Shown piece by piece: positions 6,290-47,202 of a stretch of DNA of 64,000 nt; within the stretch, counting starts at the first letter, position 1; every line of letters starts with the position of its first letter. Location of the stretch: NCBI RefSeq assembly GCF_044324875.1, contig NZ_CP172186.1; one strand, written 5' to 3'. A model generated the notes under the pieces. That model made no database searches. It had not been told where the DNA came from and saw only the letters and a program-made list of their open reading frames with translations. Made by a program: the position numbers and the translations under genes. The DNA is from Escherichia coli (GTDB lineage Bacteria; Pseudomonadota; Gammaproteobacteria; Enterobacterales; Enterobacteriaceae).

Positions 6290-6875
6290 AAAGAACCTTC
6301 TTACACATGCGCCCCTTCGGCTCCCGGCTGCCTGGCGGCATCCGGTCGTCAGGCCCGACTCCGACAGGCAGCTGCTGGCGCACCCGCCAGTCTCCGCCGA
6401 ACCCGCTGGCGCGGTTTCGGGCTGTCGCTACGGTCCGATGCGTGAAAACCCGGGCTTGCAGCGACCGTTCCGGTCGCGCCGCCTCTGTCGCGCCGTGACC
6501 TGCGCTCCCTGCACACCTGACGGTGTGTGAGGAAACTGCGCCTGATGGCGCAGCAGTCCTCCCTCCTGCCGCCACCTCTGCGGCCTGTTTCCCGCTGTGG
6601 ACTTTCCGGGGGGCAGACGTAACCCCCTCCCGTTCCATCTGTCCAGGGTGAGATGCACCGGCCACAAAATTTTTAGCCATGAACCCGGCAAAAAATTTTG
6701 CGTCCGCCCCCGGACAGCTGCCCCGTGAGGCGGTAAACGGGCCCCCATCGGAAAGGTCCACTGCGGGGAGAAACCCCTGTGAAGTGGACGGCAGGAGGAG
6801 CTTTCGCTCCTCTGAAGGGGCACATGAACGTCCCGTCGCCGGTATCCGGTTTATCTCACATCTTTCAGTCAGGAG
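6290..6875 (+). promoter_or_regulatory. single-strand-promoter-like structured element, family B copy 1 (upstream of ssb)
   Basis: ~580-bp GC-rich repeat also found at 17935..18505 and, 3' part only, 20990..21380; contains CCACAAAA(C/T)TTTT...GCGTC(C/T)GCCCCCGGACA(G/A)CTGCCCCGTG core. Confidence 0.5.
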
Positions 6876-6881
6876 GTTCTT

Positions 6882-9800
6882 ATGAGTGCACGTGGTATCA
6901 ACAAGGTCATCCTCGTCGGGGTGCGCCGTTGAAGCGCGGTGTTTTATGGAGTGTTGCCTGAAAAGCAACATGGCTTAGTGGTATAGCCATTGCATACTGT
7001 GGTTAGCCTTGCTTGGTAACAGGCTCGGAGATCCTGAAAAGGAGAGGTGAACATAGCATCCACAGAAAAGGGTGGTGAATATGGAAATCGTTATAAGTAT
7101 CACCATTCAATGCAAGATGTATATGGATAAACTGGGTTTGTTGAAGTCGAGATCTATGTGGGAAACAGGAAACCAATAACGCAGAACGATTGAAGCGTTA
7201 TTCCCGTACTAGCACAAGAAATCCGTCCGACGTTGATTGTGACCACTCTAACGGGCCAGCTATTGATGAAATAGTTAAACGATCGAAAGACATCCTAAGT
7301 ACATCGCATCTCCACACCGTGAAACTACGGGACTACCTAAACTGGATTTATACCCAGCATGGTAGCGGAGTCTCCATAGTACTCAAGGTCGGCCTGTAAT
7401 GGGTTCCGGCAGTCCGCATTATACGGAAGCAGCAAAGGTATAAATCAACCGGAAGGAAGATGAAAGCCTCACAGTGCTGCGGGGAAGGGAGACAGTTGTT
7501 AGATACATCAATCTCTAAGAGGAGGGTTAGCCAATGCTGCCTGATGAACTTGAGAAAAGATTAGATGGAATTGAGGATGCTTCAAAAAAAGGGTATCCAG
7601 TACGTAATCTATACAAAATTGCGTGTGAGCCCGGACTGTGGCTGCAAGCCTACGTGAATATACGGGCCAATGCAGGTGCACTGACTCAAGGTGTATCAAC
7701 AGATACCATTGATGGCTTTTCTATCGAAAGAGCAGAGAAGCTGGCAAAAACATTGCGGAGTAGAGAATACGTAGCGAAACCTGTACGCAGAGTTCAGATC
7801 CCAAAAAAGGACGGAAAAACCAGACCGCTGGGGATTCCAGGTGGAGACGATAAACTGGCGCAAGAAGTAGCAAGAATTATTCTGGAAAGGGTTTATGAAC
7901 CAGTATTCTCTGAACACTCTCATGGATTCAGACCAAAACGTTCGTGTGAAACTGCGCTCAGATCTATTCGTCCAGTCTGGAACGGAGTTAAATGGATCGT
8001 GGATGTTGATATCAAAGGTTTCTTTGACAATATCCCCCACAAACTATTGCTGAATACACTGGCAGAGAAAATTAAGGATAAGAATTTCCTGAAATTAATC
8101 GAACAGTGGCTGAAGGCAGGATATGTGGACAATTGGAAATACCATCGCTCATATTCTGGCACGCCACAAGGTGGGATAATTTCTCCCTTACTGGCAAATA
8201 TATACCTCGACAAACTGGACCGTTTTGTAGAACAGAATTTAATTCCTGCATATACAAGCGGTACAAAACGAAGAGCGAATCCAGATATGAACAGGCTGGC
8301 CCATAAGATTCATAAACTACGAAAGAAAGTAGACGGTATGGCAACTGATTCTGAATCAGAAAAAGAAGCCATAAAGAAAGAAATTGAACGACTGCTTGAA
8401 GAAAAACGTTCTATACCATCTCAGGTCATGAACGATCCAAACTTCAGGCGTATGTACTATGTTCGATATGCTGATGACTTCGTAATCGGTGTCATCGGCT
8501 CGAAGAAAGATGCTGAACATATATCAAGACAGGTCAGAAACTTTATTACTACTTCACTGGGATTGGAAGTTAATGAAGCAAAGACCAGGATCCGCCATAT
8601 CTCAGAAGGAGTTAATTTTTTAGGCTATGAAATCAGACAGGCAGATGCAAAGAAATTGCTGAAGCAGAAAATGCAAGGGCGGCACGCTCTCCGGAGATCC
8701 ACCACAGGAATTGTGCAGCTCTTCGTTCCTGACAATATAGCCGCTAAATTTTGTCACCAAAAGAAATATGGCTGTTATGAGAATGTGAAGGCTGTACATC
8801 GTTCAAGTCTACAAAATCTCAGTGAAGCTGAAATTGTTCTGACTTTCAACGCGGAAATGCGCGGATTGGCGAACTACTACAGTCTGGCGCTGGACATGAA
8901 ATATAAATTATCAAAATTATATTTCATATGGCAAATAAGCCTTTTTAAGACCCTGGCGAATAAACGACGTAGTTCAGTGAATAAAGTCGCCAAATCGCTA
9001 CGGCAAAATAATGGAGATCTGGCTATTACCGTTCAGGCCAAAAATGGATCCCGAAAGATTGAGGTTTTCAAACTCAAACATGTCAATCGCAACCGAACAA
9101 CGATTGTCGATACGGAACCGAGAACCGCACATATCACAACCCGCACAACAGAGATCATGCGTCGATTAGGGGCAAGGATCTGCGAGTATTGTGCGAAGAC
9201 TGGGCGCTGCGAAGTACATCATGTCAGAAAGCTAAAAGACCTGAAGAAAGGTCGTAAGGCCGGATATAAACCCAGCTTGTGGCAACTAATGATGATCGCA
9301 CGCCGCCGGAAAACGATGATTTTGTGCGCAAGTTGCCACGACAAGTTACATAGCGGAAAACTACCCGATTTGAGACAGGAAAAGGGAAGAATACTCCTGC
9401 AACCACCTGTCTCAAGCGGGGATTCTGCTAAATGAGTTTATCCCCAATAAGCTAGCAATGGAGAGCCGTATGCACTGAAAGGTGCACGTACGGTTCGGAG
9501 GGGGGGTAACGGTGATCTAACTCAAGATAAGCAGGACATATTCGCCATTTATCTTGAAAGACCACACGTACCCTACCCTACCGTCTGGGCAATGATCCGG
9601 AAGTCTGTTACATCCCCAACGGGGGCGCAGTGGCAAACCTGCAGGTCGCCACGTCAGAAAGCTGGCGCGACAAACAGACGGGGGAGATGCGGGAGCAGAC
9701 GGAATGGCACCGCGTGGTGCTGTTCGGCAAGCTCGCGGAAGTGGCTGGTGAATATCTGCGCAAGGGCGCGCAGGTCTACATCGAGGGGCAACTCCGTACC

Positions 9801-12864: not shown

Positions 12865-13071
12865 GCGCATGCAAAATGGCATCTGAATCGATCGCAGTTT
12901 GGCATTCGAATCGATCATGATTTGGCATCCATCTCCGATCACAGTTTGGCATCACAATCGATCACGATTTGGCATGCTTCCGATCATTGATTGGCATCCT
13001 GCCAGTCACTCCGGGAATTAACTCTTTTCACCACAGTCTCCATTGCCGTGTTTAAACCAGTGGAGACGTCA

Positions 13072-14637
13072 ATGTCCAGAAAGAGAAAATCCAGGAGCAC
13101 TATGGAAACCTGTTTTAAGATCCTTCAGCTCAAGTTCGACAAGAAGCTGACTAACCGTTGTATCGGACTGACGTTACACATCAGCGCCTCAACCGTTTTT
13201 GAGGTTCTTGCCCGCTTCAAAGCCTCTTCTCTGTCATGGCCATTACCTGCTGATATATCCCATGACACGCTGGAGAAACTCATTTTTCCGCCCAAAGACA
13301 CCTTTGCATCAGAGCTTGTAATGCCTGACATGTTGTACTTCGATACGGAAATGAGAAAACCAGGTGTGACGCGGCAACTGTTGTGGATGGAATACAAGGC
13401 ACAGGCGGGTAACAAAGCGATGGGATACTCGCACTTCTGCCGTTGCTACCGGGAGTGGAAAAAAACGCGACGTCTCTCCATGCGCCAGGAGCATCGTGCC
13501 GGCGAAAAGCTTTTTATCGACTTCTGTGGTCCTACGGTTCCTGTTATTAATCCGGACACCGGTGAGATACGCCGCGTGGCAATCTTCGTGGCCGTAATGG
13601 GGGCGTCCAACTATACCTACGTTGAAGCGTGCGAAGGTCAGGACATGATGTCATGGTTAAATGCCCACAGCCGTTGCCTGACCTTCCTGGGCGGCGTACC
13701 GAAGCTGCTCATCCCCGATAACCTCAGAAGCGCAGTGAAAAAGGCCGATCGATATGAGCCTGTCATCAACGACAGTTATCAGGCACTGGCTGAGCACTAT
13801 GGCACGGTTATCATCCCGGCCCGACCACGCAAACCTAAAGATAAACCAAAAGCAGAAAACGGCGTCCTCATCGTTGAACGATGGCTTCTTGCCCGCATCC
13901 GTAATGAAACCTTCCACACGCTCAGGGCGCTGAATGCGCGCCTTAGGGAGTTACTGACAGACATGAATAACCGGCCAATGAAGGGGTACGGCAATCAAAC
14001 CCGTGCAGAACGCTTCCGCATACTGGATGCGCCAGCACTCTCTCCGCTGCCTCTGGCACCTTATGAATACACGGAATACAAAGCTGTGAAGGTTGGCCCT
14101 GACTACCACGTTGAATATGCCCGTCACTGGTACTCCGTTCCACACGAACTGGTCGGTCAGCGTCTGTCACTGAAGGCGGGGCAGTCGGTGGTACAGCTCT
14201 GGCACAAGGGGCAGTGTGTGGCGCAACATCCGCGCAGCACACATGAATATAAACACACAACCAATCCGCTTCACATGCCAGAGCGCCACCGGCAGCACGG
14301 GACATGGACACCGGAACGCCTGATCGAGCAGGGAAAACGTACGGGCCCGTCCACAGGCCGGGTGGTTGAATCCATGCTGAAGGCAAAACCCCATCCGGAA
14401 CTGGCTTATCGTGCAGTTCTGGGGCTGCTGGCACTTCAGAAAAAATACGGCCCGGAACGGCTGGAAAAGGCCTGTTACGTTGCCCTGCACTATAACGCCC
14501 CTGACAGACGCTTTATCGACAATCTGCTGCGTCACCATCGGGAGAACCTGGAGCTTCCATTATCCCGCCAGGGCGAACAACATCCGGCATATGCTTCAGA
14601 GCATGAAAACCTGCGTGGTCCGGGCTACTACCACTGA
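13072..14637 (+). CDS. istA: IS21-family transposase IstA
   Basis: ~521 aa, HTH N-terminus and DDE integrase core; start chosen at MSRKRKS after GGAGACG RBS. Confidence 0.85.
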   Translation: MSRKRKSRSTMETCFKILQLKFDKKLTNRCIGLTLHISASTVFEVLARFKASSLSWPLPADISHDTLEKLIFPPKDTFASELVMPDMLYFDTEMRKPGVTRQLLWMEYKAQAGNKAMGYSHFCRCYREWKKTRRLSMRQEHRAGEKLFIDFCGPTVPVINPDTGEIRRVAIFVAVMGASNYTYVEACEGQDMMSWLNAHSRCLTFLGGVPKLLIPDNLRSAVKKADRYEPVINDSYQALAEHYGTVIIPARPRKPKDKPKAENGVLIVERWLLARIRNETFHTLRALNARLRELLTDMNNRPMKGYGNQTRAERFRILDAPALSPLPLAPYEYTEYKAVKVGPDYHVEYARHWYSVPHELVGQRLSLKAGQSVVQLWHKGQCVAQHPRSTHEYKHTTNPLHMPERHRQHGTWTPERLIEQGKRTGPSTGRVVESMLKAKPHPELAYRAVLGLLALQKKYGPERLEKACYVALHYNAPDRRFIDNLLRHHRENLELPLSRQGEQHPAYASEHENLRGPGYYH

Positions 14638-14653
14638 CAGAAGGAACAACAGT

Positions 14654-15409
14654 ATGAGTGATAACCTGTTAAACAAACTGACCCAACTGAAACTCCCGGC
14701 GATGGCCGGGAGCCTGATACGGCAGCGGGAAACGCCTCAGACCTACGACGAACTGTCGTTCGAGGAAAGGCTGACGCTGCTGGTTGATGACGAGCTTCTG
14801 AGCAGGGAAAACAGCCGTGTGGCACGGTTGAGAAAAAATGCCGGCCTGAAATACCAGGCAACACCGGAAGGGCTGCGCTATCCGGCCTCAAGAGGTCTGC
14901 GGGCTGAACAGATGAGAGAACTGCTGAACGGCCACTACATAACCCACAGGAAAAACCTGCTGATAACCGGTCCGACAGGATGTGGCAAGAGCTGGATAGC
15001 CAATGCGCTGGGCGAACAGGCATGTCGACAGAAACACAGCGTCCGGTACTGTAGAACCGGGCGATTACTGGAACAACTGGCTCAGGGACGTGTTGATGGC
15101 AGCTGGCTGAAATATCTGAAACAGTTGCAAAAAATACAGGTTCTAATCCTGGACGATCTGGGGCTGGAACAGTTAAGTAACGCCCAGTGTAATGACCTTC
15201 TGGAGCTCATAGAGGATCGTTACGGACAAAGCAGCACGATAGTGGTAAGCCAGTTCCCGGTAGATAAATGGCATGGTCTGATGGAGAACCCAACAACAGC
15301 AGATGCCATCCTGGACAGACTGGTACATAACTCACACCGAGTGGTCCTTCAGGGAGAGTCACTGAGGAAAAATCCCCCGGTAGTGGAAAGCAGCGAAAAA
15401 ACGCGTTAA
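14654..15409 (+). CDS. istB: IS21-family helper ATPase IstB
   Basis: 251 aa; Walker A LLITGPTGCGKSW, Walker B ILILDDLG. Confidence 0.9.
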   Translation: MSDNLLNKLTQLKLPAMAGSLIRQRETPQTYDELSFEERLTLLVDDELLSRENSRVARLRKNAGLKYQATPEGLRYPASRGLRAEQMRELLNGHYITHRKNLLITGPTGCGKSWIANALGEQACRQKHSVRYCRTGRLLEQLAQGRVDGSWLKYLKQLQKIQVLILDDLGLEQLSNAQCNDLLELIEDRYGQSSTIVVSQFPVDKWHGLMENPTTADAILDRLVHNSHRVVLQGESLRKNPPVVESSEKTR

Positions 15410-15509
15410 AAAGCGGTAGAAAAAGTTAAGTTCCCGGTTGATCGAATGGATGCGAATCGCTGATCGGACTTCGATGCCAATCCGTGATCGAATAGAGCGG
15501 AATACGCAA

Positions 15510-23234: not shown

Positions 23235-25937
23235 ATGAATGCCATCATTCCGAAAAAAAGACGCGACGGAAAGTCTTCTTTTGAAGACCTGATTGCGTAC
23301 ACCTCAGTGCGGGATGATGTGCCGGAAGATGAACTCAGACCAGACACGGAAGTGAAAGGTGAGGTTCCGCACCGGAATCGCTTCAGACGTCTTGTTGATT
23401 ATGCAACACGTCTGCGTAATGAAAAATTTGTTTCCCTGATTGATGTGATGAAAGACGGCAGTCAGTGGGTGAATTTCTATGGTGTGACCTGCTTTCATAA
23501 CTGTTTGTCTCTTGAATCTGCGGCTGAAGAAATGCAGAAAGCAGCAGACCTTGCTTATTTTTCCAAAGATGATACAGATCCTGTTTTTCACTATATTCTC
23601 TCCTGGCCTGCGCACGAAAGTCCGCGTTCTGAGCAGCTTTTTGACTGTGTGCGTCACACCCTGAAATCCCTTGAGCTGTCAAAACATCAGTATGTGGCAG
23701 CCGTTCATACAGACACGGATAACCTGCATGTACATGTTGCAGTGAATCGTGTCCACCCTGAAACCGGCTATATCAATTGCCTTCCGTGGAGCCAGGAAAA
23801 ACTCAGCCGTGCATGTCGTGAACTTGAACTTAAGCACGGATTCGCGCCGGATAATGGCTGCTTTGTGCATGCACCCGGCAACCGTATTGTGCGCAAAACA
23901 GCGCTGGTACGTGAGCGCCGTAATGCCTGGCGACGCGGGAAAAAGCAGACGTTCAGGGAATATATTGCTCAGATGTCGATTGCCGGGCTGCGTGAAGAGC
24001 CTGCACAGGACTGGTTATCTTTGCATAAACGGCTGGCCAGCGATGGTCTGTATATCACGATGCAGGAAGGGGAACTGGTGGTGAAGGATGGCTGGGACAG
24101 AGCGCGGGAAGGTGTTGCACTCAGTTCGTTCGGACCGTCATGGACAGCTGAAAAACTGGGGCGGAAACTGGGGGAATATCAGCCTGTACCGACAGATATT
24201 TTCAGTCAGGTGGGGACACCCGGTCGTTATGATCCGGAAGCCATAAACGTTGATATCCGGCCGGAAAAAGTGGCAGAAACGGAGAGTCTGAAACAGTACG
24301 CCTGCCGTCACTTTGCTGAACGCTTACCGGCAATGGCGCGCAATGGTGAACTGAAAAGCTGCCTGGCTGTACACCGTACTCTGGCAGAGGCGGGATTATG
24401 GATGGGGATCCAGCACGGGCATCTGGTACTGCATGATGGATTTGATAAACAACAGACACCAGTACGTGCAGACAGTGTGTGGCCGTTGTTAACGCTGGAA
24501 AATATCAGAAAACTGAATGGCGGCTGGCAGTCTGTACCGAAGGATATTTTTACTCAGGTTGTACCACAAAGTCGCTTTAGTGGGCATCGAATGGATATGC
24601 ATCCGGTCAGTGATCATGAATGGCACAGAATGAGAACAGGGGCTGGCCCACAGGGGGCAATTAAGCGGGAGATTTTCTCTGACAAAGAGAGTCTGTGGGG
24701 ATATGCAGTCAGCCATTGTGCCCGTGATATTCAGTACATGATCTCTGAAGGGCGCTTTAGCTGGCAGAACTGCCATGAACTGTTTGCCCGCAGTGGACTG
24801 ATGTTACAGAAACTGCATCATGGTCTTGTGATTGTGGATGCGTTTAATCATGACCAGACACCGGTTAAAGCCAGCAGCATTCATCCGGATTTGACTTTGT
24901 CCAGAGCAGAGCCGCAGGCCGGGCCATTTGAAATTGCAGCGGCGGATATTTTCGATCGGGTGAAGCCTGAAAGCCGTTATAACCCTGATATGGCTGTCAG
25001 TGACAGTAAGGAACCCGGGTTTAAACGGGATCCTGAATTGCGCCGCCGTCGTCGTGAAACCCGTGCAGCTGCGCGGGAAGATTTGCGTGCGCGTTACCTT
25101 GCATGGAAGGAGCACTGGCGTAAACCCGATTTACGTTACGGCGAACGGTTACGGGAAGTTCATGCTGCCTGCCGCCGGCGCAAGGCGCATATCCGCGTAC
25201 AGTTCAGGGATCCGCAAGTGCGTAAGCTGCATTACCATATTGCGGAAGTGCAGCGAATGCAGGCGCTGATCAGGCTGAAGGAAAGCGTCAGGGAAGAGCG
25301 ACTGTCGCTGATGGCGGAAGGTAAGTGGTACCCGCTGTCTTACAGGCAGTGGGTGGAGCAGATGGCGGTTCAGGGGGATTCTGCTGCTGTATCTCAGTTA
25401 CGTGGATGGAATTATCGCGACAGAAGGAATGATGAGGTGCTTTTAACCACGCCTCAACGCTGTGTGGTTCTTTGTGAACCAGGCTCCACCCCGATTCACA
25501 GGGATATCGGTGGCATGGTGGCGACTTTGCAGCGTAATGGCAGTGTGCGTTTCCGTGATGCGACAACAGGAGAGTACGTCTGTACAGATTATGGTGATCG
25601 CGTTGTTTTCAGCAACAGTGCCGATAACAAAACACTGAAGAAAAGGATGGTCAGGGTGTCCAGTGTGCTTTTTGCAAGGGATCCCCGAATGGGGTTTGAG
25701 CCGGAAGGTCAGGATGCACAATTTAACCGTATGTTTGCTGATATGGTTGCGTGGAAAAACGTGCAGCGGGATGAGCGTAAGGGGCACTACAGGATAAGTC
25801 GTTCTGATGTTGATCAACTGAGGGTCAGTAGTGAAAAACGTTTTCGTGATTATCTTAAAGGGCGTGATACTGAATCACACACTTACCATCATGCAACGGA
25901 TGAAAATAAGTGGGAGCCGCCATCACCGGGGATGTAA
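23235..25937 (+). CDS. nikB: relaxase NikB (MOBP-type)
   Basis: 900 aa; N-terminal relaxase domain with HxDTDNLHVHVAVNRV histidine motif. Confidence 0.85.
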   Translation: MNAIIPKKRRDGKSSFEDLIAYTSVRDDVPEDELRPDTEVKGEVPHRNRFRRLVDYATRLRNEKFVSLIDVMKDGSQWVNFYGVTCFHNCLSLESAAEEMQKAADLAYFSKDDTDPVFHYILSWPAHESPRSEQLFDCVRHTLKSLELSKHQYVAAVHTDTDNLHVHVAVNRVHPETGYINCLPWSQEKLSRACRELELKHGFAPDNGCFVHAPGNRIVRKTALVRERRNAWRRGKKQTFREYIAQMSIAGLREEPAQDWLSLHKRLASDGLYITMQEGELVVKDGWDRAREGVALSSFGPSWTAEKLGRKLGEYQPVPTDIFSQVGTPGRYDPEAINVDIRPEKVAETESLKQYACRHFAERLPAMARNGELKSCLAVHRTLAEAGLWMGIQHGHLVLHDGFDKQQTPVRADSVWPLLTLENIRKLNGGWQSVPKDIFTQVVPQSRFSGHRMDMHPVSDHEWHRMRTGAGPQGAIKREIFSDKESLWGYAVSHCARDIQYMISEGRFSWQNCHELFARSGLMLQKLHHGLVIVDAFNHDQTPVKASSIHPDLTLSRAEPQAGPFEIAAADIFDRVKPESRYNPDMAVSDSKEPGFKRDPELRRRRRETRAAAREDLRARYLAWKEHWRKPDLRYGERLREVHAACRRRKAHIRVQFRDPQVRKLHYHIAEVQRMQALIRLKESVREERLSLMAEGKWYPLSYRQWVEQMAVQGDSAAVSQLRGWNYRDRRNDEVLLTTPQRCVVLCEPGSTPIHRDIGGMVATLQRNGSVRFRDATTGEYVCTDYGDRVVFSNSADNKTLKKRMVRVSSVLFARDPRMGFEPEGQDAQFNRMFADMVAWKNVQRDERKGHYRISRSDVDQLRVSSEKRFRDYLKGRDTESHTYHHATDENKWEPPSPGM

Positions 25938-26005
25938 AAATCATGTAGACAGGGTGATTAAATCACCGTAATGTGTCCTCGTTGTGTATACATTATGGGG
26001 GAGAT

Positions 26006-26254
26006 ATGCGAACACAGGTGACACTGCAAAAATGGGGCAACAGTATTGCTCTCCGGTTAACCGGAAATCTGAAAACCGTGCCGGGTTTTTCGGCAGGAGA
26101 TGTGGTTGATGTGGAAATCAGTGAGAAAGGATTGATCGTGGAAAAACCGGTGAGACCTCGTCTTACAGAGGCTGTATTGCTTGCGGGGCTGACGCCATTT
26201 TCCGCGCATGCAGATGAAGCTGCCACTCTTCTTGATAAGGAGAGTGAGTTCTGA
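26006..26254 (+). CDS. MazE/PemI-like antitoxin (AbrB/SpoVT fold)
   Basis: 82 aa MRTQVTLQKWGNSIALRL...; immediately precedes and overlaps the toxin gene. Confidence 0.7.
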   Translation: MRTQVTLQKWGNSIALRLTGNLKTVPGFSAGDVVDVEISEKGLIVEKPVRPRLTEAVLLAGLTPFSAHADEAATLLDKESEF

Positions 26255-26598
26255 TGTTTGTTCCAAAGCGTGGTGATATTTGCTGGCTTGATTTTGAACC
26301 CCAAAAAGGAAAAGAAATTGGCAAATATCGTCCGGCATTAATCCTGTCCCATGAGCAATATAATCGTTTAACAGGGCTTGTCATATGCTGCCCTGTCAGT
26401 ACGAGTATCCGGGGCGCTCCAACAGAGGTTCCTGTTACTAATCTCGATGCACCAAGTGTGGTGGCCACAACGCTCATACAGACACTTGACTGGCGGCAAA
26501 GGCAAGTGCGTTTAATTACGGAAGCAGAAGAGGGCGTATTTGATGAGGTGCTTGAGAGAGTGATCACTCTGATTGGTGGTGAACATTTACTGAAGTGA
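26254..26598 (+). CDS. MazF/PemK-family endoribonuclease toxin
   Basis: 114 aa ...KRGDICWLDFEPQKGKEIGKYRPALILS...GLVICCPVSTS... PemK-like. Confidence 0.75.
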   Translation: MFVPKRGDICWLDFEPQKGKEIGKYRPALILSHEQYNRLTGLVICCPVSTSIRGAPTEVPVTNLDAPSVVATTLIQTLDWRQRQVRLITEAEEGVFDEVLERVITLIGGEHLLK

Positions 26599-26600
26599 AG

Positions 26601-26854
26601 GAGCCTGTTTAAGATTCTGTGTAAATGCCTTTCTCAGAAGTGACCGTCCAGGCGGTCACCGAACTCGATAATAAAGCGGCTCATTGCCATTCGCCAGTCC
26701 TTCAACGGCATCGTCCATTTCCGGGACGCAGACTGGATTGCCAGCCACACCACTTTTTTCACCGAGTCGTCTGTCGGGAACACTTTACGCTTTTTGATCG
26801 CATGGCGGATCACGCTGTTTAGCGACTCGATGGCATTCGTCGTATAGATCACTT
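26601..26854 (-). mobile_element. IS256-family element, right-end fragment with transposase C-terminus
   Basis: 72-aa ORF 26634..26852 ...TNAIESLNSVIRHAIKKRKVFPTDDSVKKVVWLAIQ... typical IS256-family Tnp C-terminus. Confidence 0.7.
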
Positions 26855-28144
26855 TGAACCGCCCCGGAAATCCTGGAGACTAAACTTCCTGAGAAAGATG
26901 TAAACAGGATGACTAAAAATACTCGTTTTTCCCCCGAAGTCCGTCAACGGGCAGTTCGTATGGTTCTGGAAAGCCAGGGCGAATATGACTCACAATGGGC
27001 GGCAATTTGTTCCATTGCTCCAAAGATTGGCTGTACGCCAGAGACCCTGCGTGTCTGGGTTCGCCAGCATGAGCGGGATACCGGGGGCGGTGATGGTGGG
27101 CTCACCACCGCTGAACGTCAGCGTCTGAAAGAGCTGGAACGCGAAAATCGTGAACTGCGCCGCAGTAACGATATCCTTCGCCAGGCTTCCGCTTATTTTG
27201 CGAAGGCGGAGTTCGACCGCCTCTGGAAAAAATAATGCCACTGCTGGATAAGCTGCGTGAGCTGCAGTGAGCTGCATATTGCCCCGTCAACGTATTACCA
27301 CTGTCAGCAACAGCAGCATCATCCTGATAAACGCAGCGCCCGTGCGCAGCGTGATGACTGGCTGAAGAAAGAGATACAGCGCGTATACGATGAAAATCAC
27401 CAGGTGTACGGTGTGCGTAAAGTCTGGCGTCAGTTGTTACGGGAAGGTATCAGAGTGGCCAGATGCACTGTGACACGTCTTATGGCGGTTATGGGTTTTG
27501 CCGGTGTTCTCCGGGGTAAAAAGGTCCGCATTACCGTCAGCCGGAAAGCCGTTGCCGCAGGCGACCGCGTAAACCGTCATTTCGTGGCAGAACGTCCTGA
27601 CCAGCTGTGGGTGGCTGATTTTACTTACGTCAGCACATGGCAGGGCTTTGTTTATGTGGCGTTCATCATTGATGTGTTTGCCGGATACATCGTGGGATGG
27701 CGGGTCTCCTCGTCCATGGAAACGACATTCGTGCTGGATGCACTGGAGCAGGCGTTGTGGGCCCGTCGTCCGTCTGGCACCATCCATCACAGCGATAAAG
27801 GCTCTCAGTATGTATCGCTGGCCTACACGCAGCGGCTTAAGGAAGTCGGATTACTGGCATCAACAGGGAGCACAGGCGACTCGTATGACAACGCGATGGC
27901 GGAGAGCATCAATGGTCTTTACAAGGCGGAGGTAATACACCGTAAGAGCTGGAAAAACCGGACAGAAGTGGAGCTGGCTACACTCACGTGGGTGGACTGG
28001 TATAACAATCGACGATTGCTGGAAAGGCTGGGCCATACTCCCCCGGCAGAAGCAGAAAAAGCTTATTATGCTTCCATCGGAAACAATGATCTGGCAGCCT
28101 GAGTTCACAGACAAAACATTCTCCAGGAAACCCGGGGCGGTTCA
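26855..28144 (+). mobile_element. IS629/IS1203-like IS3-family element, copy A (small internal deletion, frameshifted orfB)
   Basis: Ends TGAACCGCCCCGG...CCCGGGGCGGTTCA; orfA 26909..27235, orfB remnant 27257..28102; ~20 bp missing at orfA/orfB junction relative to copy C. Confidence 0.85.
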
Positions 28145-28603
28145 GTTTTGCCATTCTACAACCTGCTCCATCACGGCATCGGTAACCTTTGATATCAGTG
28201 CCGGTGAAACATCTGCGTCATACAGTTCTTTGAACGCAGCGGCTATCTCACGGGTGGTCATCCCTTTGGCATACAACGAGAGGATCTGGTTATCCATCCC
28301 GGTAATACGGGTCTGATTTTTCTTTACCAGTTGTGGTTCGAAGGTACCGTCACGATCGCGCGGAGTACGCAGTTCCAGTGGACCGTCGCCTGTGATAACG
28401 GTCTTTGTGGAATAACCGTTGCGGGAGTTAGCTCCTGGTCTGGACTGATTTTTCTCATACCCAAGATGGTGTGTCATCTCTGCATTGAGAGCGGCTTCAA
28501 CGCTGAGCTTTTTCAGCAGCCGATCAAACTGACTGAGGTCTTCAGGGGTTTTGAGGTTTTTGGCCAGTTCGTTAGCCAGAGCCTGTAACTGTTTTTCGTC
28601 CAT
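28142..28603 (-). pseudogene. IS256-family transposase, N-terminal 153 aa (interrupted by IS629 copy A)
   Basis: MDEKQLQALANELAKNLKTPEDLSQFDRLLKKLSVEAALNAEMTHHLGYEKNQ...; middle ~175 codons absent. Confidence 0.75.
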
Positions 28604-28689
28604 AAATTAACCTTCATTTGATGCTGGATTGAACATATCAAAATCAGGCAATTACACAAATCTATGTACAGGCTCTTCCGCTGGCTGGC

Positions 28690-28935
28690 TCACCTGCGTC
28701 GCGCCGGCTGCCAGGTAAACGTGTTCTCTGCGGCACGATACGCTTTTGTTCGTTGAGCCTTTGCGGTTCTCGCTTTGCGCTCTGCCCGAATCATTCTCAA
28801 AACTTTTACACGCACTTTTCTCTTAACTTCCCGTGGCAGTTCATCCCTGCCGGACAACTTTAACTGTGCAGCCTGTGCGGCATAAGCATCGTTGATACGC
28901 TTACGTTCTGCTTCCGTCAGTTTCATCCAAGACAT
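28690..28935 (-). CDS. hypothetical highly basic small protein (cargo of the IS256-bounded insertion)
   Basis: 81 aa; strong AGGAGGA RBS 5 nt upstream of ATG. Confidence 0.45.
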   Translation of the reverse strand: MSWMKLTEAERKRINDAYAAQAAQLKLSGRDELPREVKRKVRVKVLRMIRAERKARTAKAQRTKAYRAAENTFTWQPARRR

Positions 28936-35855: not shown

Positions 35856-36042
35856 CGGTTACTTCCCGACAGACGACTCGGTGAAAAAAGTGGTGTGGCT
35901 GGCAATCCAGTCTGCGTCCCGGAAATGGACGATGCCGTTGAAGGACTGGCGAATGGCAATGAGCCGCTTTATTATCGAGTTCGGTGACCGCCTGGACGGT
36001 CACTTCTGAGAAAGGCATTTACACAGAATCTTAAACAGGCTC
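35856..36042 (+). mobile_element. IS256-family element, second right-end fragment (inverted relative to 26601..26854)
   Basis: Reverse complement of 26601..~26785 including transposase 3' end. Confidence 0.7.
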
Positions 36043-36086
36043 AAGTGAAGCTAAGCACACAATCAATTCAGGTCTTTGACATCCTC

Positions 36087-36151
36087 CATCTTAACTTCCA
36101 AAGGGTACTCCCGCCGACATAAGGCGGGAGTACCCTTTGGAAGTTAAGATG
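36087..36151. repeat. perfect 29-bp inverted repeat with 7-bp loop
   Basis: CATCTTAACTTCCAAAGGGTACTCCCGCC-GACATAA-GGCGGGAGTACCCTTTGGAAGTTAAGATG; flanked by 13-bp direct repeats TTGACATCCTCCA at 36076 and 36254. Confidence 0.6.
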
Positions 36152-36296
36152 GAAAACCGACATAAGAACCCTCTGTTATCCTGAAACTCTTATATTTATA
36201 TAACTTGTGAAGGCGTTATGCACACAACCAATCTTCGCAAAGTCGGCGTCTCGTTGACATCCTCCACGCCCTGACGAATGTGGAGGAATGTCAATA

Positions 36297-38570
36297 TTAA
36301 TGTCCGGGCCACTCCTGTTGTTCAGTGACGTGATGTGATATTTCTTCTTTAGCTGTAGCCTCATTCTGGAGGTTTGAAGTAAATATACGCTCCATTGTTT
36401 GTGCAACCGATGGTGGCATTTTTTCTTCCACACGTTCCTCTTCCGGACAACTCTGTGTGATATAGCATACGTGCCGTTCTTCCCGGGATGTGGTATTGAT
36501 GATGTGAACTGCCTTGTTCCACAGGCTGTTTCCCCGGGCAGAGATATCTGTATCATATTGCGGAAGCAGATCCAGCGATGTTTGTGTTTCGTTAAGCTGC
36601 TTCTGGAAGGTATCGATGATACGGTAAGGCTCTGTACGGTTTTTACGACGTTTACGGGATGGTTTTGCTGTCAGTACACCAATAATGCTGCTGACATGCT
36701 CCGGTGTGGGAAAACGGCGCTGCACTGTCCTGGGGACGAGACGGCGGAGACGCTCCAGGCGGGGGGCTTCAACGGAAATATAGCGGTTGATGACCACCGG
36801 ATCACTGTCGCAACTTTTCTCGCTGTCCGGAATATACACAGAGGCTGACGGCACCACATCCCCCTGGAAAACGGTAAAGAACTCACCGGCATTCAGTCTG
36901 ATCAAATCCTGCACGTCGATTTTGCTTTCCATCTGGATGGTGATCTGGTTACCGTCCACCCAGGACTCACCCATCACACCATCGTGGCGCTGCAGGCTGC
37001 CCATTCTGGCCCGAGCCTCTTCACCGGCGGCATTTTTCACCGTTCTTGCCGTTTTGTCGTCACTGACAATGCGTCCGGCGAATTTGGTGCCGGCGTTCTG
37101 CATCAGTGTGGCGGTGTTGGTGGCGGAGGTCTGCCCTTCAATTCGCTCCTGATCCTGCGCCATCATTATCAGGGAAAACTCCAGTGAACGTACCTGGGTG
37201 GCCTCCACAGCAATGCGGTCTGTGTAGTAGGCACCGACTTCGTCAAGGATACAGATATAGGGGAAGCGGCCTTTGTATTTTTTTACTTCCAGGGTCTGTG
37301 CGTCTGTGCCTTCCAGGCGGTAGCCCAGGTCACGGGCGAGGATCATGCTCTGCTGGGTGATGAACATACGACCGAGTGCCGACGTGGTATGGGCTGATGT
37401 GTCCAGTGCGGGGATCATCACAATCAGAATTCGGTCGCTGTGGATACTGTCGCGAATATCGATGTCGCCGGCATCTGCCGCAAAGACGTCCCCGAAGGTT
37501 TCGGCAAAGGTTGTGAATGTTTCCGAGAACTGACCGGAGAGATAAGCATGCTGTTTACGGGGCTCCTCAGTCCAGGCTGACGGCGTTCTCACCAGTGACA
37601 TATCGAATCCCGGAACGTCCTGCAGGTAATTTCTCAGTGGTGCGATGGCTTCTTCCGGCCACTGGTCATCAAGCCCACGGCAATAGAGTTTTGCCATACC
37701 TTCCAGCGTCATATGCTCCCGTAACATCTGCAGGGACATGGTTTTTCTTTCCCGGACGCACCAGAATTTTGTGCCAAAGACCAGGGCTTTGTTCATGGCT
37801 ATCGCCCGTGACTGCCATTCACCCCCCTGAACGTTCTGGGGAAGCATGGACTGCATGGTTTCGGCGGTGAAGGCTTCGGTGCTGAATGCGAACGGGTTCC
37901 AGGTGTTTGACTGTGGGCGGGATTTTTCGCCGCTCTGAATGATTTCACTGCGGGATTTTCCGCCGTTCATGAAGTTGATGACCTCGATATCATCCTCCCG
38001 GCCAAAACGTCGGGAGAGATACCAGATTGTCCTCGTGGTATCGTTCTGTGCCTTTCCGTCAACAAAGGTAAAGCCTCTTCCCCAGCAGAGAGGGTTGAGC
38101 AGCCAGGCAAAGGTGGTTTCTGTTTTACCGCCACCGGTGGTGGAAAAAAATATGATATGCCGGGTGAGGTCATCCATGCTCAGCCAGAGCTCACGACCGA
38201 TATCGTTGATACGGCGGTAACCGACATAAAAAATCCCCCGTGCGGGGGATGTTTCATCTGCTTCATACTGAAACAGGGTGGGCCAGAAGCTGAAGAGGCT
38301 TCGCCTGACCTTTCTGTCCTGGGAGGGGTCATCAAGGCTGAGCGTCATGGGCATACGCAGGGGGCATCGCCAGCGTTGCAGCGTGAATATCACGGAGGTG
38401 ACCAGGGTGAACAGCAGACAGACAGGAAGGGCCAGTGGCCATATCAGGGCCGTAATGATACTGCCGGCCAGACACAGACCAATGATGTTCAGGTTGTGCA
38501 GTGCATTCCACAGCGGGTTTCCCCAGGCCGTGCGGTGTATGAGGTCAGGATTAACGTGATGCTGGCTCAT
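36297..38570 (-). CDS. trbC: TrbC, conjugative coupling-type ATPase (N-terminal membrane segments, Walker A)
   Basis: 757 aa; ...FFSTTGGGKTET... Walker A; size/order as IncI1 trbABC. Confidence 0.8.
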   Translation of the reverse strand: MSQHHVNPDLIHRTAWGNPLWNALHNLNIIGLCLAGSIITALIWPLALPVCLLFTLVTSVIFTLQRWRCPLRMPMTLSLDDPSQDRKVRRSLFSFWPTLFQYEADETSPARGIFYVGYRRINDIGRELWLSMDDLTRHIIFFSTTGGGKTETTFAWLLNPLCWGRGFTFVDGKAQNDTTRTIWYLSRRFGREDDIEVINFMNGGKSRSEIIQSGEKSRPQSNTWNPFAFSTEAFTAETMQSMLPQNVQGGEWQSRAIAMNKALVFGTKFWCVRERKTMSLQMLREHMTLEGMAKLYCRGLDDQWPEEAIAPLRNYLQDVPGFDMSLVRTPSAWTEEPRKQHAYLSGQFSETFTTFAETFGDVFAADAGDIDIRDSIHSDRILIVMIPALDTSAHTTSALGRMFITQQSMILARDLGYRLEGTDAQTLEVKKYKGRFPYICILDEVGAYYTDRIAVEATQVRSLEFSLIMMAQDQERIEGQTSATNTATLMQNAGTKFAGRIVSDDKTARTVKNAAGEEARARMGSLQRHDGVMGESWVDGNQITIQMESKIDVQDLIRLNAGEFFTVFQGDVVPSASVYIPDSEKSCDSDPVVINRYISVEAPRLERLRRLVPRTVQRRFPTPEHVSSIIGVLTAKPSRKRRKNRTEPYRIIDTFQKQLNETQTSLDLLPQYDTDISARGNSLWNKAVHIINTTSREERHVCYITQSCPEEERVEEKMPPSVAQTMERIFTSNLQNEATAKEEISHHVTEQQEWPGH

Positions 38571-40982: not shown

Positions 40983-41438
40983 GGGGATTCCTCCATAGAT
41001 GAATGGATAAATTTCGGGATTAAGTCGGGTGGCATGAATGCGAATCAGCGCCGGTAATAACCGGACAGGAATGAATTCAACAGGACATTTTTACAGAGAA
41101 GAGCGAACGGCAGAAGGTGGTGGGAGACAGGTACAAAAAAACCGACTGGTGAGGCCGGTTTTTTTGCGATTCCGGGGTGGAGTTGGTGGCTCTGACCGGA
41201 GGAAGTCTCTTTTCAGCTAACAATGAGAGAGCTGTTGTGACAGGCAATGTAAGAGTAAGCAGCAGTGATTTCCTCCATTGACGGAGAAACGGATGATTAA
41301 CCTGTTAATCATCGTTCTCAGGGCGGTTGTTGCTGTGGCTAACGCAGTGATAGCTCTCCGGGAACTGGTTGACTGATAATCCCGGAAACGTACTTAAGGG
41401 CAGAGGGTCACCTCCTTCTGCCCTTTAACAAAATATGC

Positions 41439-41615: not shown

Positions 41616-41785
41616 TTTTACACCTTTCTGTTATTCTGCTTATTACGACCAGCAGACAGCAAATATTAAAAATAACGCGGCGGTAATGCGTATTCCGCTC
41701 TATTCGATCACGGATTGGCATCGAAGTCCGATCAGCGATTCGCATCCATTCGATCAACCGGGAACTTAACTTTTTCTACCGCTTT

Positions 41786-42541
41786 TTAACGCGTTTTTTC
41801 GCTGCTTTCCACTACCGGGGGATTTTTCCTCAGTGACTCTCCCTGAAGGACCACTCGGTGTGAGTTATGTACCAGTCTGTCCAGGATGGCATCTGCTGTT
41901 GTTGGGTTCTCCATCAGACCATGCCATTTATCTACCGGGAACTGGCTTACCACTATCGTGCTGCTTTGTCCGTAACGATCCTCTATGAGCTCCAGAAGGT
42001 CATTACACTGGGCGTTACTTAACTGTTCCAGCCCCAGATCGTCCAGGATTAGAACCTGTATTTTTTGCAACTGTTTCAGATATTTCAGCCAGCTGCCATC
42101 AACACGTCCCTGAGCCAGTTGTTCCAGTAATCGCCCGGTTCTACAGTACCGGACGCTGTGTTTCTGTCGACATGCCTGTTCGCCCAGCGCATTGGCTATC
42201 CAGCTCTTGCCACATCCTGTCGGACCGGTTATCAGCAGGTTTTTCCTGTGGGTTATGTAGTGGCCGTTCAGCAGTTCTCTCATCTGTTCAGCCCGCAGAC
42301 CTCTTGAGGCCGGATAGCGCAGCCCTTCCGGTGTTGCCTGGTATTTCAGGCCGGCATTTTTTCTCAACCGTGCCACACGGCTGTTTTCCCTGCTCAGAAG
42401 CTCGTCATCAACCAGCAGCGTCAGCCTTTCCTCGAACGACAGTTCGTCGTAGGTCTGAGGCGTTTCCCGCTGCCGTATCAGGCTCCCGGCCATCGCCGGG
42501 AGTTTCAGTTGGGTCAGTTTGTTTAACAGGTTATCACTCAT
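41786..42541 (-). CDS. istB: IS21-family IstB (copy 2)
   Basis: Protein identical to copy 1 IstB. Confidence 0.9.
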   Translation of the reverse strand: MSDNLLNKLTQLKLPAMAGSLIRQRETPQTYDELSFEERLTLLVDDELLSRENSRVARLRKNAGLKYQATPEGLRYPASRGLRAEQMRELLNGHYITHRKNLLITGPTGCGKSWIANALGEQACRQKHSVRYCRTGRLLEQLAQGRVDGSWLKYLKQLQKIQVLILDDLGLEQLSNAQCNDLLELIEDRYGQSSTIVVSQFPVDKWHGLMENPTTADAILDRLVHNSHRVVLQGESLRKNPPVVESSEKTR

Positions 42542-42557
42542 ACTGTTGTTCCTTCTG

Positions 42558-44123
42558 TCAGTGGTAGTAGCCCGGACCACGCAGGTTTTCATGCTCTGAA
42601 GCATATGCCGGATGTTGTTCGCCCTGGCGGGATAATGGAAGCTCCAGGTTCTCCCGATGGTGACGCAGCAGATTGTCGATAAAGCGTCTGTCAGGGGCGT
42701 TATAGTGCAGGGCAACGTAACAGGCCTTTTCCAGCCGTTCCGGGCCGTATTTTTTCTGAAGTGCCAGCAGCCCCAGAACTGCACGATAAGCCAGTTCCGG
42801 ATGGGGTTTTGCCTTCAGCATGGATTCAACCACCCGGCCTGTGGACGGGCCCGTACGTTTTCCCTGCTCGATCAGGCGTTCCGGTGTCCATGTCCCGTGC
42901 TGCCGGTGGCGCTCTGGCATGTGAAGCGGATTGGTTGTGTGTTTATATTCATGTGTGCTGCGCGGATGTTGCGCCACACACTGCCCCTTGTGCCAGAGCT
43001 GTACCACCGACTGCCCCGCCTTCAGTGACAGACGCTGACCGACCAGTTCGTGTGGAACGGAGTACCAGTGACGGGCATATTCAACGTGGTAGTCAGGGCC
43101 AACCTTCACAGCTTTGTATTCCGTGTATTCATAAGGTGCCAGAGGCAGCGGAGAGAGTGCTGGCGCATCCAGTATGCGGAAGCGTTCTGCACGGGTTTGA
43201 TTGCCGTACCCCTTCATTGGCCGGTTATTCATGTCTGTCAGTAACTCCCTAAGGCGCGCATTCAGCGCCCTGAGCGTGTGGAAGGTTTCATTACGGATGC
43301 GGGCAAGAAGCCATCGTTCAACGATGAGGACGCCGTTTTCTGCTTTTGGTTTATCTTTAGGTTTGCGTGGTCGGGCCGGGATGATAACCGTGCCATAGTG
43401 CTCAGCCAGTGCCTGATAACTGTCGTTGATGACAGGCTCATATCGATCGGCCTTTTTCACTGCGCTTCTGAGGTTATCGGGGATGAGCAGCTTCGGTACG
43501 CCGCCCAGGAAGGTCAGGCAACGGCTGTGGGCATTTAACCATGACATCATGTCCTGACCTTCGCACGCTTCAACGTAGGTATAGTTGGACGCCCCCATTA
43601 CGGCCACGAAGATTGCCACGCGGCGTATCTCACCGGTGTCCGGATTAATAACAGGAACCGTAGGACCACAGAAGTCGATAAAAAGCTTTTCGCCGGCACG
43701 ATGCTCCTGGCGCATGGAGAGACGTCGCGTTTTTTTCCACTCCCGGTAGCAACGGCAGAAGTGCGAGTATCCCATCGCTTTGTTACCCGCCTGTGCCTTG
43801 TATTCCATCCACAACAGTTGCCGCGTCACACCTGGTTTTCTCATTTCCGTATCGAAGTACAACATGTCAGGCATTACAAGCTCTGATGCAAAGGTGTCTT
43901 TGGGCGGAAAAATGAGTTTCTCCAGCGTGTCATGGGATATATCAGCAGGTAATGGCCATGACAGAGAAGAGGCTTTGAAGCGGGCAAGAACCTCAAAAAC
44001 GGTTGAGGCGCTGATGTGTAACGTCAGTCCGATACAACGGTTAGTCAGCTTCTTGTCGAACTTGAGCTGAAGGATCTTAAAACAGGTTTCCATAGTGCTC
44101 CTGGATTTTCTCTTTCTGGACAT
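42558..44123 (-). CDS. istA: IS21-family IstA (copy 2)
   Basis: Protein identical to copy 1 IstA. Confidence 0.85.
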   Translation of the reverse strand: MSRKRKSRSTMETCFKILQLKFDKKLTNRCIGLTLHISASTVFEVLARFKASSLSWPLPADISHDTLEKLIFPPKDTFASELVMPDMLYFDTEMRKPGVTRQLLWMEYKAQAGNKAMGYSHFCRCYREWKKTRRLSMRQEHRAGEKLFIDFCGPTVPVINPDTGEIRRVAIFVAVMGASNYTYVEACEGQDMMSWLNAHSRCLTFLGGVPKLLIPDNLRSAVKKADRYEPVINDSYQALAEHYGTVIIPARPRKPKDKPKAENGVLIVERWLLARIRNETFHTLRALNARLRELLTDMNNRPMKGYGNQTRAERFRILDAPALSPLPLAPYEYTEYKAVKVGPDYHVEYARHWYSVPHELVGQRLSLKAGQSVVQLWHKGQCVAQHPRSTHEYKHTTNPLHMPERHRQHGTWTPERLIEQGKRTGPSTGRVVESMLKAKPHPELAYRAVLGLLALQKKYGPERLEKACYVALHYNAPDRRFIDNLLRHHRENLELPLSRQGEQHPAYASEHENLRGPGYYH

Positions 44124-44408
44124 TGACGTCTCCACTGGTTTAAACACGGCAATGGAGACTGTGGTGAAAAGAGTTAATTCCCGGAGTGACTGGCAGGATG
44201 CCAATCAATGATCGGAAGCATGCCAAATCGTGATCGATTGTGATGCCAAACTGTGATCGGAGATGGATGCCAAATCATGATCGATTCGAATGCCAAACTG
44301 CGATCGATTCAGATGCCATTTTGCAGGTAAAAATGGCAATTTTTTTCATGCTGTATTTTTGCCATTTATTTTCTTTGAAATGGTTTTTTTCTTCATATCA
44401 GCAAATAA

Positions 44409-46647: not shown

Positions 46648-46991
46648 CGGTGGGGTACAAACGCAGAAATTTTGTTGTCATTACATCATCAGTTTTAGCC
46701 TGCAGAGACGCTGAAAAATCAGCGTTTTCAGACCCTGTTCAGGTTAGTGAATATTCTTGCCTGGCCTTTCGGCAATATCAATCCCCTGATGTGTGCACAC
46801 GTAGTCACTTTCCGGCTTTATTTCTGTCCCTGACACAAAATACGTGGTGGCATGAAAAGGATTGTGGCGGACAGGAAAACGATTAGAATAGCGGCGGGCG
46901 CTTGAGGCTGTATGCCGAAAGCGTTTTGTGGACGGCATGTAGCAGAAAGCCCCAGGCGATTTTTTTATCAATCAACCCAGGGCCCACTGTA

Positions 46992-47195
46992 ATGCCTAGA
47001 CAACATTATAGTAGCCCGATGACGGCCGAAAGGCAATGGAGGGGCTGCGATGCCACAACGAACGTTTTTAATGATGTTAATCGTCGTCTGTGTGACGATA
47101 CTGTGTTTTGTCTGGATGGTGAGGGATTCGCTTTGCGGATTTCGTATCGAGCAGGGAAATACGGTGCTTGTGGCAACGTTAGCCTACGAAGTTAA
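46992..47195 (+). CDS. pndC: possible PndC (mok-like overlapping reading frame); start uncertain
   Basis: Alternate frame overlapping almost all of pndA, as in hok/mok-type loci. Confidence 0.35.
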   Translation: MPRQHYSSPMTAERQWRGCDATTNVFNDVNRRLCDDTVFCLDGEGFALRISYRAGKYGACGNVSLRS

Positions 47196-47202
47196 ACGTT
47201 AA
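47050..47202 (+). CDS. pndA: Hok/Gef-family post-segregational killing toxin PndA
   Basis: 50 aa MPQRTFLMMLIVVCVTILCFVWMVRDSLCGFRIEQGNTVLVATLAYEVKR; below ORF-track cutoff, read directly. Confidence 0.8.
   Translation: MPQRTFLMMLIVVCVTILCFVWMVRDSLCGFRIEQGNTVLVATLAYEVKR

Follow-up and report, generated by a model that had tools for sequence, protein, structure and literature searches.

A MazEF-like toxin–antitoxin gene pair in the nikB–trbC gap of an IncK2/Z conjugative plasmid

The window analyzed here, a 64,000-nucleotide stretch of Escherichia coli DNA, matches IncK2/Z conjugative plasmids, with pLH50-c-A (NZ_CP100501.1) as the best match. Its nikB gene encodes a relaxase of the MOBP/NikB type and is preceded by a NikA-like gene. 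Directly downstream of nikB lie two small, adjacent and co-oriented genes, the antitoxin first and the toxin second: the layout of a type II toxin–antitoxin operon. The features considered below are these:

23,235–25,937, plus strand: nikB, relaxase gene, 900 aa (Pfam Relaxase, 4.7e-28; NCBIfam TraI_MobP_relax, 416 bits)
25,938–26,005, plus strand: 68-nt spacer between nikB and the antitoxin gene, candidate autoregulated promoter/operator (putative function)
26,006–26,254, plus strand: antitoxin gene, MazE-like, 82 aa (ATG at 26,006, TGA at 26,252–26,254)
26,254–26,598, plus strand: toxin gene, MazF-like, 114 aa (ATG at 26,254, TGA at 26,596–26,598)
26,593–26,600: left copy of an 8-bp target-site duplication, AAGTGAAG, which contains the toxin stop codon
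26,601–36,042: insertion sequence (IS) block, 9.4 kb, with inverted IS256-family (IS1414-type) terminal repeats at 26,601–26,629 and 36,014–36,042
36,043–36,050: right copy of the target-site duplication, AAGTGAAG, with onward sequence as in uninterrupted sister plasmids
36,297–38,570, minus strand: trbC, convergent with nikB; the pair occupies the slot between these two genes
41,133–41,376: dqlB/agrB type I module, comprising a DinQ-like (dqlB-like) ORF at 41,293–41,376 on the plus strand and an AgrB-family antisense RNA at 41,133–41,220 on the minus strand
46,896–47,202, plus strand: pnd module, comprising the pndA Hok/Gef ORF (47,050–47,202) and a sok-family RNA (46,896–47,052)

A first-pass annotation of this DNA had set the pair 70 bp after nikB. 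It is indeed directly downstream, but the gap between the nikB stop (25,937) and the antitoxin ATG is 68 nt. The overlap of stop and start codons claimed in the same annotation is real: the antitoxin stop and the toxin start have one base in common (TGATG, 26,252–26,256), an arrangement also present in relatives of the pair. A ribosome-binding site (GGGGGAG, 25,997–26,003) lies just 5′ of the ATG at 26,006. The antitoxin start given in a mechanical ORF list, GTG at 25,973, was rejected; homologues and the RefSeq annotation begin at the ATG (MRTQV...). Minus-strand ORFs across the locus (for example 26,163–26,567, 134 aa) are by-products of the same mechanical kind, and the homologues belong to the plus-strand ORFs. 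RefSeq names the pair at family level (WP_033810804.1 and WP_032354044.1). It is thus already named at that level in public annotation, and is a member of a very well known kind. A literature search for the pair on IncK/IncK2 plasmids or beside nikB returned nothing specific, only mentions of RelE/ParE and hok/sok.

The toxin scores 87.3 bits on the Pfam PemK_toxin profile (PF02452; cut-off 23.1), far above chance, with E = 1e-24 and coverage of profile positions 1–107 of 109, in agreement with its earlier assignment to the PemK family. The solved structures point to MazF: in the PDB, the best matches are MazF of Deinococcus radiodurans (4e-20), a toxin from Klebsiella (9e-20), and MazF of E. 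coli (1.5e-17), whereas Kid/PemK of R1/R100 is far weaker (1.4e-6). An AlphaFold model of the toxin monomer, made with 20 homologues, has a pLDDT of 88.6 and a pTM of 0.83, its uncertainty being confined to the β1–β2 loop (residues 19–23). In Foldseek this model matches solved MazF structures with probability 1.00, the TM score being 0.86 for the E. coli protein and 0.87 for that of D. radiodurans. The predicted fold is the SH3-like barrel of the MazF/CcdB type.

The catalytic residues of MazF are Arg29 and Thr52 (Arg25 and Thr48 in Bacillus subtilis; PMC7933679, PMC10893535). The first-pass annotation had held that a toxin without conserved catalytic residues would speak against its reading; the alignment shows no outright loss of this kind, with one of the two positions substituted. 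Residue R26 of the toxin aligns with Arg29 and is invariant across the subfamily, and E21, the equivalent of MazF E24, is kept. At the Thr52 position the toxin has S49, followed by T50, and serine is found here in at least 90% of the subfamily. Serine at position 49 retains the hydroxyl of threonine.

Kid uses other residues for catalysis: R73, D75, and H17. In a BLASTP alignment of the toxin with Kid (28% identity), both R73 and D75 fall within a five-residue gap, and H17 lies opposite K20. (The Kid sequence was checked against 1m1f, and the Kid and MazF sequences were both checked against PDB chains.) The label "PemIK" is therefore valid at the superfamily level only. Scores under both NCBIfam equivalog cut-offs, for MazF (NF007386, 94.5 bits against 120) and for ChpB (45.3 bits against 129), place the toxin outside MazF and ChpBK proper. 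Judged by sequence, it belongs to a MazF-like paralogous subfamily, and is neither E. coli MazF/ChpBK proper nor a Kid/PemK-type enzyme. The earlier description of the pair as "PemIK/MazEF-type" thus stands in its second half: the toxin keeps the MazF arginine and lacks the Kid triad. We regard it as a putative MazF-like endoribonuclease. An experimentally characterized member of the subfamily (above 60% toxin identity) was not found in the literature, including the Xenorhabdus PemK papers.

The phmmer matches of the antitoxin in the PDB are to 7d2n_E, D. radiodurans MazE (2e-6 over residues 6–72), and to E. coli MazE (5e-4). A profile built from antitoxin homologues matches 7d2n_E at 6e-15; the match of that profile to E. 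coli MazE is circular, since the sequence was itself in the alignment. The Pfam MazE_antitoxin profile (PF04014) gives 17.8 bits, under its cut-off of 24.7. An AlphaFold monomer shows a β-β...β-β pattern at a pLDDT of 62, although a monomer is a poor test of an intertwined-dimer fold. A low value is expected because of the intertwined dimer and its disordered tail, and the model was therefore not used. Homologues as distant as 26% identity still conserve the N-terminal WGNS region and the C-terminal AHADE motif, and residues H68, D70, and E71 are nearly invariant. Homology thus indicates a MazE relative with two parts: an N-terminal half of the AbrB/SpoVT type, its fold deduced from the homology, and a C-terminal tail that is acidic. 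The AbrB fold proposed in the first-pass annotation holds on these grounds, rather than through the model or Pfam.

The pair had also been described as the native left flank of a composite insertion. The IS block, which contains IS3-family and IS66-family copies, landed 2 nt past the toxin stop and left the toxin ORF intact. The block does not belong to the module, whose right edge it marks. The AAGTGAAG duplication flanks the block, so the pair was the left flank before insertion. Uninterrupted sister plasmids agree: in them, the toxin stop runs straight into the sequence that resumes at window position 36,043, and window positions 36,040–36,089 match positions 8,691–8,740 of one such plasmid (L001). 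The EAST1 (astA) peptide motif was searched for in the IS1414 copies and was not found.

Sister plasmids also reveal a short variable slot 3′ of the toxin gene, bounded by imperfect direct repeats (36,052–36,088 and 36,217–36,266 in the window). Its content differs: the window has a perfect inverted repeat of 31 nt there; some plasmids (L012) have about 280 bp; L017 has an IS605-type element; and L001, L013, L015, L016, and L019 have genes for a Dcm-type methylase and an EcoRII-type endonuclease.

How native is the pair to its plasmid? It occurs in 15 of 72,556 PLSDB plasmid records, over which its DNA is at least 99% identical (14 at 100%, one at 99.7%). Among 5,426 complete E. coli genomes it again occurs in 15, always plasmid-borne and always directly after nikB; the chromosomes of these genomes hold no megablast-level copy, and chromosomal relatives reach only about 76% DNA identity. 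In the assembly collection, 4352 blocks index the exact toxin, and none of these copies lies on a contig of more than 1 Mb. An IncI1/B/O plasmid has an empty site, its nikB and trbC converging across 220 bp. This is the usual I-complex arrangement, with nothing between the two genes, and the pair is not part of the general I-complex backbone.

The neighboring part of nikB, a divergent allele of its last 100–200 codons, is as rare as the pair. The final ~500 bp of the gene (25,430–25,937) reach at least 99% identity in 15 PLSDB records; in 1586 other I-complex plasmids they are only 60–80% identical. (The records with this divergent allele and those with the pair are equal in number, 15; the two lists were matched by count, not accession by accession.) Compared with the IncI1/B/O relaxase (L005), NikB is 97–100% identical over residues 1–400, whereas over residues 701–900 identity is 64% and then 39%. 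The rarity of the allele and the divergence of the NikB carboxyl terminus together argue that the pair belongs to a recombinant block comprising the nikB 3′ end, the pair, and the trbC 3′ end. "Native" is thus correct in that the pair preceded the IS block, but it applies to a rare lineage only: 15 plasmid records, a count equal to that of the divergent nikB 3′ allele.

The closest relative of the pair (P0001, on E. coli chromosomal contigs) allows selection to be estimated. The region of homology to this copy opens with the antitoxin ATG itself and extends only a few bases beyond the toxin stop. The toxins are 93% identical as proteins and 79.5% identical as DNA, with a dN/dS of 0.018 (Nei-Gojobori) at near-saturated synonymous divergence; for the antitoxin, by the same method, pN is 0.14 and pS is saturated. 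These values indicate very strong purifying selection on the toxin. They bear on the idea that the pair is an inert hitchhiker that looks intact while no longer being toxic or expressed. The replacement of the catalytic threonine by serine and the weakness of the promoter match (see below) would fit such a relic. However, the dN/dS value and the intact state of both ORFs in every copy seen weigh against it, and serine prevails in at least 90% of the subfamily, so the substitution is no lineage-specific lesion. We consider an inert pair highly improbable.

The 68-nt spacer holds several sequence features that could serve regulation. By eye, a weak σ70-like promoter can be drawn from TAGACA (25,946–25,951) and TAATGT (25,969–25,974), separated by 17 nt; in a consensus promoter scan of positions 25,700–26,900 it falls under threshold. 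The sole match of that scan lies within the toxin gene (26,384–26,357, minus strand) and was set aside as being at chance level (1 found, 1.5 expected). Within the promoter spacer lies a palindrome, GGTGATTAAATCACC (7-1-7; GGTGATT-A-AATCACC; 25,953–25,967). The motif TGTAKACA occurs at 25,944–25,951 and 25,985–25,992, two of only five sites in the 64-kb window. The chromosomal relative, whose upstream DNA cannot otherwise be aligned, has two copies of this motif there, and more distant relatives have repeated TTATACA cores at the same upstream place. Such motifs would suit a promoter under autorepression, the arrangement of other MazEF operons, and make the spacer a candidate operator.

Alternatively, the pair could be co-transcribed with nikAB, its expression being tied to conjugative transfer rather than to a free-standing autoregulated operon; it might then enforce retention in new transconjugants, for example, or penalize incomplete transfer. 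The two genes lie on the same strand as nikB, 68 nt past it, and a scan for intrinsic terminators between nikB and the antitoxin gene predicted none. Moreover, in the contexts examined the pair always immediately follows this nikB allele. Yet a single recombination event explains that linkage more simply, and the spacer contains a plausible −35/−10 pair flanked by palindromes. Chromosomal and prophage relatives, which have no upstream relaxase, carry about 80 bp of upstream DNA of their own with the same repeated motif. Transfer-coupled expression therefore seems improbable, and an autoregulated operon is the reading pursued here.

Relatives of the toxin at 63–93% identity are widespread in the Enterobacterales, Vibrio, and other Gammaproteobacteria. 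The cluster that includes P0001 has members in Salmonella, Yersinia, Photorhabdus, Vibrio, and Aeromonas; copies in Vibrio and Aeromonas are plasmid-borne. The 93% copy, also carried by four IMG/VR contigs, forms the terminal gene pair of a satellite-like island that has integrated next to hpt or at other sites. Genes of this island include those for an integrase, a primase, an Ogr/Delta regulator, and a major head protein of the P2 type. Copies at 68–70% identity reside as morons in lambdoid prophages, where unannotated ORFs precede them and the tail genes follow, those for minor tail protein Z and the tail tube lying just downstream. The toxin itself matches PHROG 1936, a "MazF-like growth inhibitor" in the moron category. 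A direct phage origin was considered and rejected: deposited phage genomes contain no close relative, only matches below 60% identity. Nor did the PADLOC-DB 2.0 defense models match either protein at E ≤ 0.01. Carriage by plasmids, a satellite-like island, and prophages, together with these two negative results, identifies the toxin subfamily as general mobile-element cargo.

Such company raises the prospect that the MazEF-type machinery acts chiefly against phages or competitors, by abortive infection, with the nikB–trbC gap as a small defense slot. A phage that shuts off host transcription or degrades the antitoxin would release the RNase. The satellite-like island and the lambdoid morons suit this proposal, as do the sister plasmids in which genes for a Dcm-type methylase and an EcoRII-type restriction enzyme directly follow the toxin gene in the same slot. 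Still, mobile-element carriage is equally expected of a pure addiction module, and the restriction system that neighbors the pair in some plasmids may be there simply because both use one insertion slot. With the PADLOC result and the distance of the phage matches also counting against it, a chiefly defensive role is possible but doubtful.

The pair is not the only killer module in the window. The first-pass annotation had noted a hok-type pnd killer, and this is borne out by the pndA ORF (Pfam HOK_GEF, 1.3e-12) and its sok-family RNA (Rfam, 125.6 bits). It had counted at least two unrelated modules; the dqlB/agrB module brings the number in the window to three. The AgrB-family RNA of this last module scores 51.8 bits in Rfam, and the dqlB-like ORF, whose peptide has no match in Pfam, is supported by RefSeq annotation of a sister plasmid. 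The vapBC genes of pLH50-c-A were considered as a further module and lie outside the window.

Together, these observations suggest that the pair is probably a functional MazEF-type type II toxin–antitoxin operon, carried as accessory cargo in the nikB–trbC gap of an IncK2/Z plasmid. By analogy with MazEF biology, the toxin dimer would cut single-stranded RNA as a sequence-specific endoribonuclease, independently of the ribosome. In the antitoxin dimer, the AbrB-type N-terminal half would bind DNA, and the acidic C-terminal tail (AHADE...ESEF) would wrap the toxin and block the RNA groove. Repression of the operon's promoter by the toxin–antitoxin complex would probably run through the two TGTAKACA sites of the spacer. 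With an unstable antitoxin, plasmid-free daughter cells would release the toxin and stop growing (post-segregational killing); shut-off of expression would likewise free the RNase. The pair would work together with pnd and dqlB/agrB, the two type I modules.

Plasmid retention seems the most likely pay-off of such an operon, and exclusion of phages or competitors is a possible one. Several observations count against this explanation: the toxin's shortfall against the MazF equivalog (94.5 versus 120 bits), its Thr-to-Ser change, and an antitoxin score under the Pfam MazE cut-off. The plasmid also has partition genes in addition to its two type I killers, so an extra addiction module may be redundant.

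A bolder synthesis can be drawn from the same material. The nikB–trbC gap may be a dedicated, repeat-bracketed cargo slot, with the pair as its fixed anchor and EcoRII-type defense genes swapped in beside it; the pair would then be an abortive-infection or anti-competitor RNase common to plasmids, satellites, and prophages, and not a simple addiction module. It might even be switched on by read-through from the relaxase operon during transfer. We think this synthesis unlikely.

As it stands, the pair is a routine toxin–antitoxin annotation. IncK2 plasmids are described in the literature as spreading blaCMY-2-type resistance in poultry E. coli. If a working MazEF-type module indeed accompanies pnd and dqlB/agrB, it would help this sub-lineage to persist without antibiotic selection, and would complicate plasmid-curing strategies. 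Moreover, the presence of the subfamily on plasmids, a satellite-like island, and prophages, and the slot held in common with a restriction system, make it a reasonable candidate for asking whether MazF-type modules defend mobile elements against phages.

Four known systems frame the pair. The first is MazE/MazF of E. coli (PDB 1ub4, 5ck9, and 5cr2), which has the same gene order and nearly the same sizes (82 and 111 aa, compared with 82 and 114 aa here). The N-terminal WGNS region and the acidic, toxin-binding C-terminal tail of MazE align with the antitoxin. The toxins agree in fold (TM 0.86) and in the catalytic Arg and E24 equivalents (R26 and E21), but are only about 30% identical, with Ser49 here in place of Thr52. 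In addition, E. coli mazEF resides in the relA-mazEFG locus, whereas the present pair is plasmid-borne. E. coli MazF cuts at ACA.

MazEF-dr of D. radiodurans (PDB 7d28 and 7d2n) provides the best solved-structure match for both proteins, with about 40% identity between the toxins. The catalytic Arg29 and Thr52 positions of its MazF align with the toxin, although its Thr52, too, lies opposite a serine. It differs in being a chromosomal stress-response module from a distant phylum. Its MazF is specific for UACA, going by a title cited in PMC7933679, and at 40% identity this specificity is not transferable to the present toxin.

Kis/Kid, the PemI/PemK of R1/R100 (PDB 1m1f), has the PF02452 superfamily in common with the pair, as well as the logic of an AbrB-type antitoxin joined to an RNase toxin, and a plasmid-stabilizing setting on enterobacterial conjugative plasmids. 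It stands apart in sequence (28% identity) and in its catalytic residues R73, D75, and H17, which are absent from the toxin here.

The nearest kin are the MazF-like toxins of the mobile-element subfamily, with 63–93% toxin identity and, where checked, the same 82-aa antitoxin partner. What sets them apart is their surroundings: other upstream DNA and other insertion sites.

The slot immediately 3' of the toxin gene is variable, and is flanked by two imperfect direct repeats (TAAGCACACAATCAAT...TTGACATCCTCCA):

36052-36088 and 36217-36266, the direct repeats in the window
6349-6403 and 6655-6722, the direct repeats in L012, a sister plasmid
36085-36153, inverted repeat in the window, its 31-nt arms matching perfectly around a loop of 7 nt

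Between the direct repeats, sister plasmids carry a Dcm-type methylase together with an EcoRII-type endonuclease. The slot may be a site where cargo is exchanged by recombination. In the window, the inverted repeat stands in place of about 260 bp found in those sister plasmids that carry the toxin-antitoxin pair only. This palindrome is complete in 18 PLSDB plasmids, with partial matches in about 174, and could represent either two IS ends lying back to back or a scar left by excision.

The insertion sequence beside the toxin is an IS256-family (IS1414-type) copy (26601-28700), interrupted by an IS3-family element (26854-28144) that contains a structured RNA:

27190-27276, ALIL frameshift pseudoknot

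The remainder of the 9.4-kb block is made up of copies of IS3 and IS66; no cargo gene is recognisable in it. Elsewhere in the window, a 2.6-kb IS21-family element is present as two inverted copies (12870-15508 and 41687-44325), each encoding IstB and an IstA-like protein of 548 aa; the sister plasmid pLH50-c-A has neither. The intervening segment of about 26 kb, which contains the relaxase gene, the toxin-antitoxin pair, and trbABC, could undergo inversion mediated by these copies. The leading region contains a group II intron (6921-9581), also absent from the closest sister plasmid:

7534-9435, intron reverse transcriptase/maturase reading frame
9461-9581, match to Rfam Intron_gpII

Upstream of the pair, NikB (23235-25937) is a mosaic. 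Its first 400 residues are 97-100% identical to an IncI1/B/O relaxase, whereas over the last 200 identity falls to 64% and then 39% (codons ~700-900). The divergent nikB 3' allele occurs in 15 plasmid records, a count equal to that of the toxin-antitoxin pair.

A third toxin-antitoxin module, unmentioned in the first-pass annotation, lies between trbA and a nuclease gene (41133-41376):

41293-41376, plus strand, DinQ-like type I toxin reading frame (dqlB-like)
41133-41220, minus strand, AgrB-family antisense RNA (Rfam, 51.8 bits)

Just 5' of the antitoxin start, a TGTAKACA / TTATACA core is repeated (25944-25992), as it is in the upstream regions of L026-L028, among loci whose promoters are otherwise unalignable. 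This core is a candidate for a conserved operator of this MazE subfamily.

Relatives of the pair reside on other mobile elements. The nearest (toxin, 93% amino acid identity; two-gene locus, ~76% DNA identity) makes up the two genes at the end of a satellite-like element integrated in E. coli chromosomal contigs (L006 5753-12345; also L007-L011 and L020-L023). This element encodes a P2-type major head protein, an Ogr/Delta regulator, an integrase, and a large primase; it adjoins hpt in some E. coli and occupies other sites in others. Relatives whose toxins are 68-70% identical lie within lambdoid prophages (L025 3711-6587; L027 3747-6558), with the genes for minor tail protein Z and the tail tube directly downstream, a position that is moron-like.
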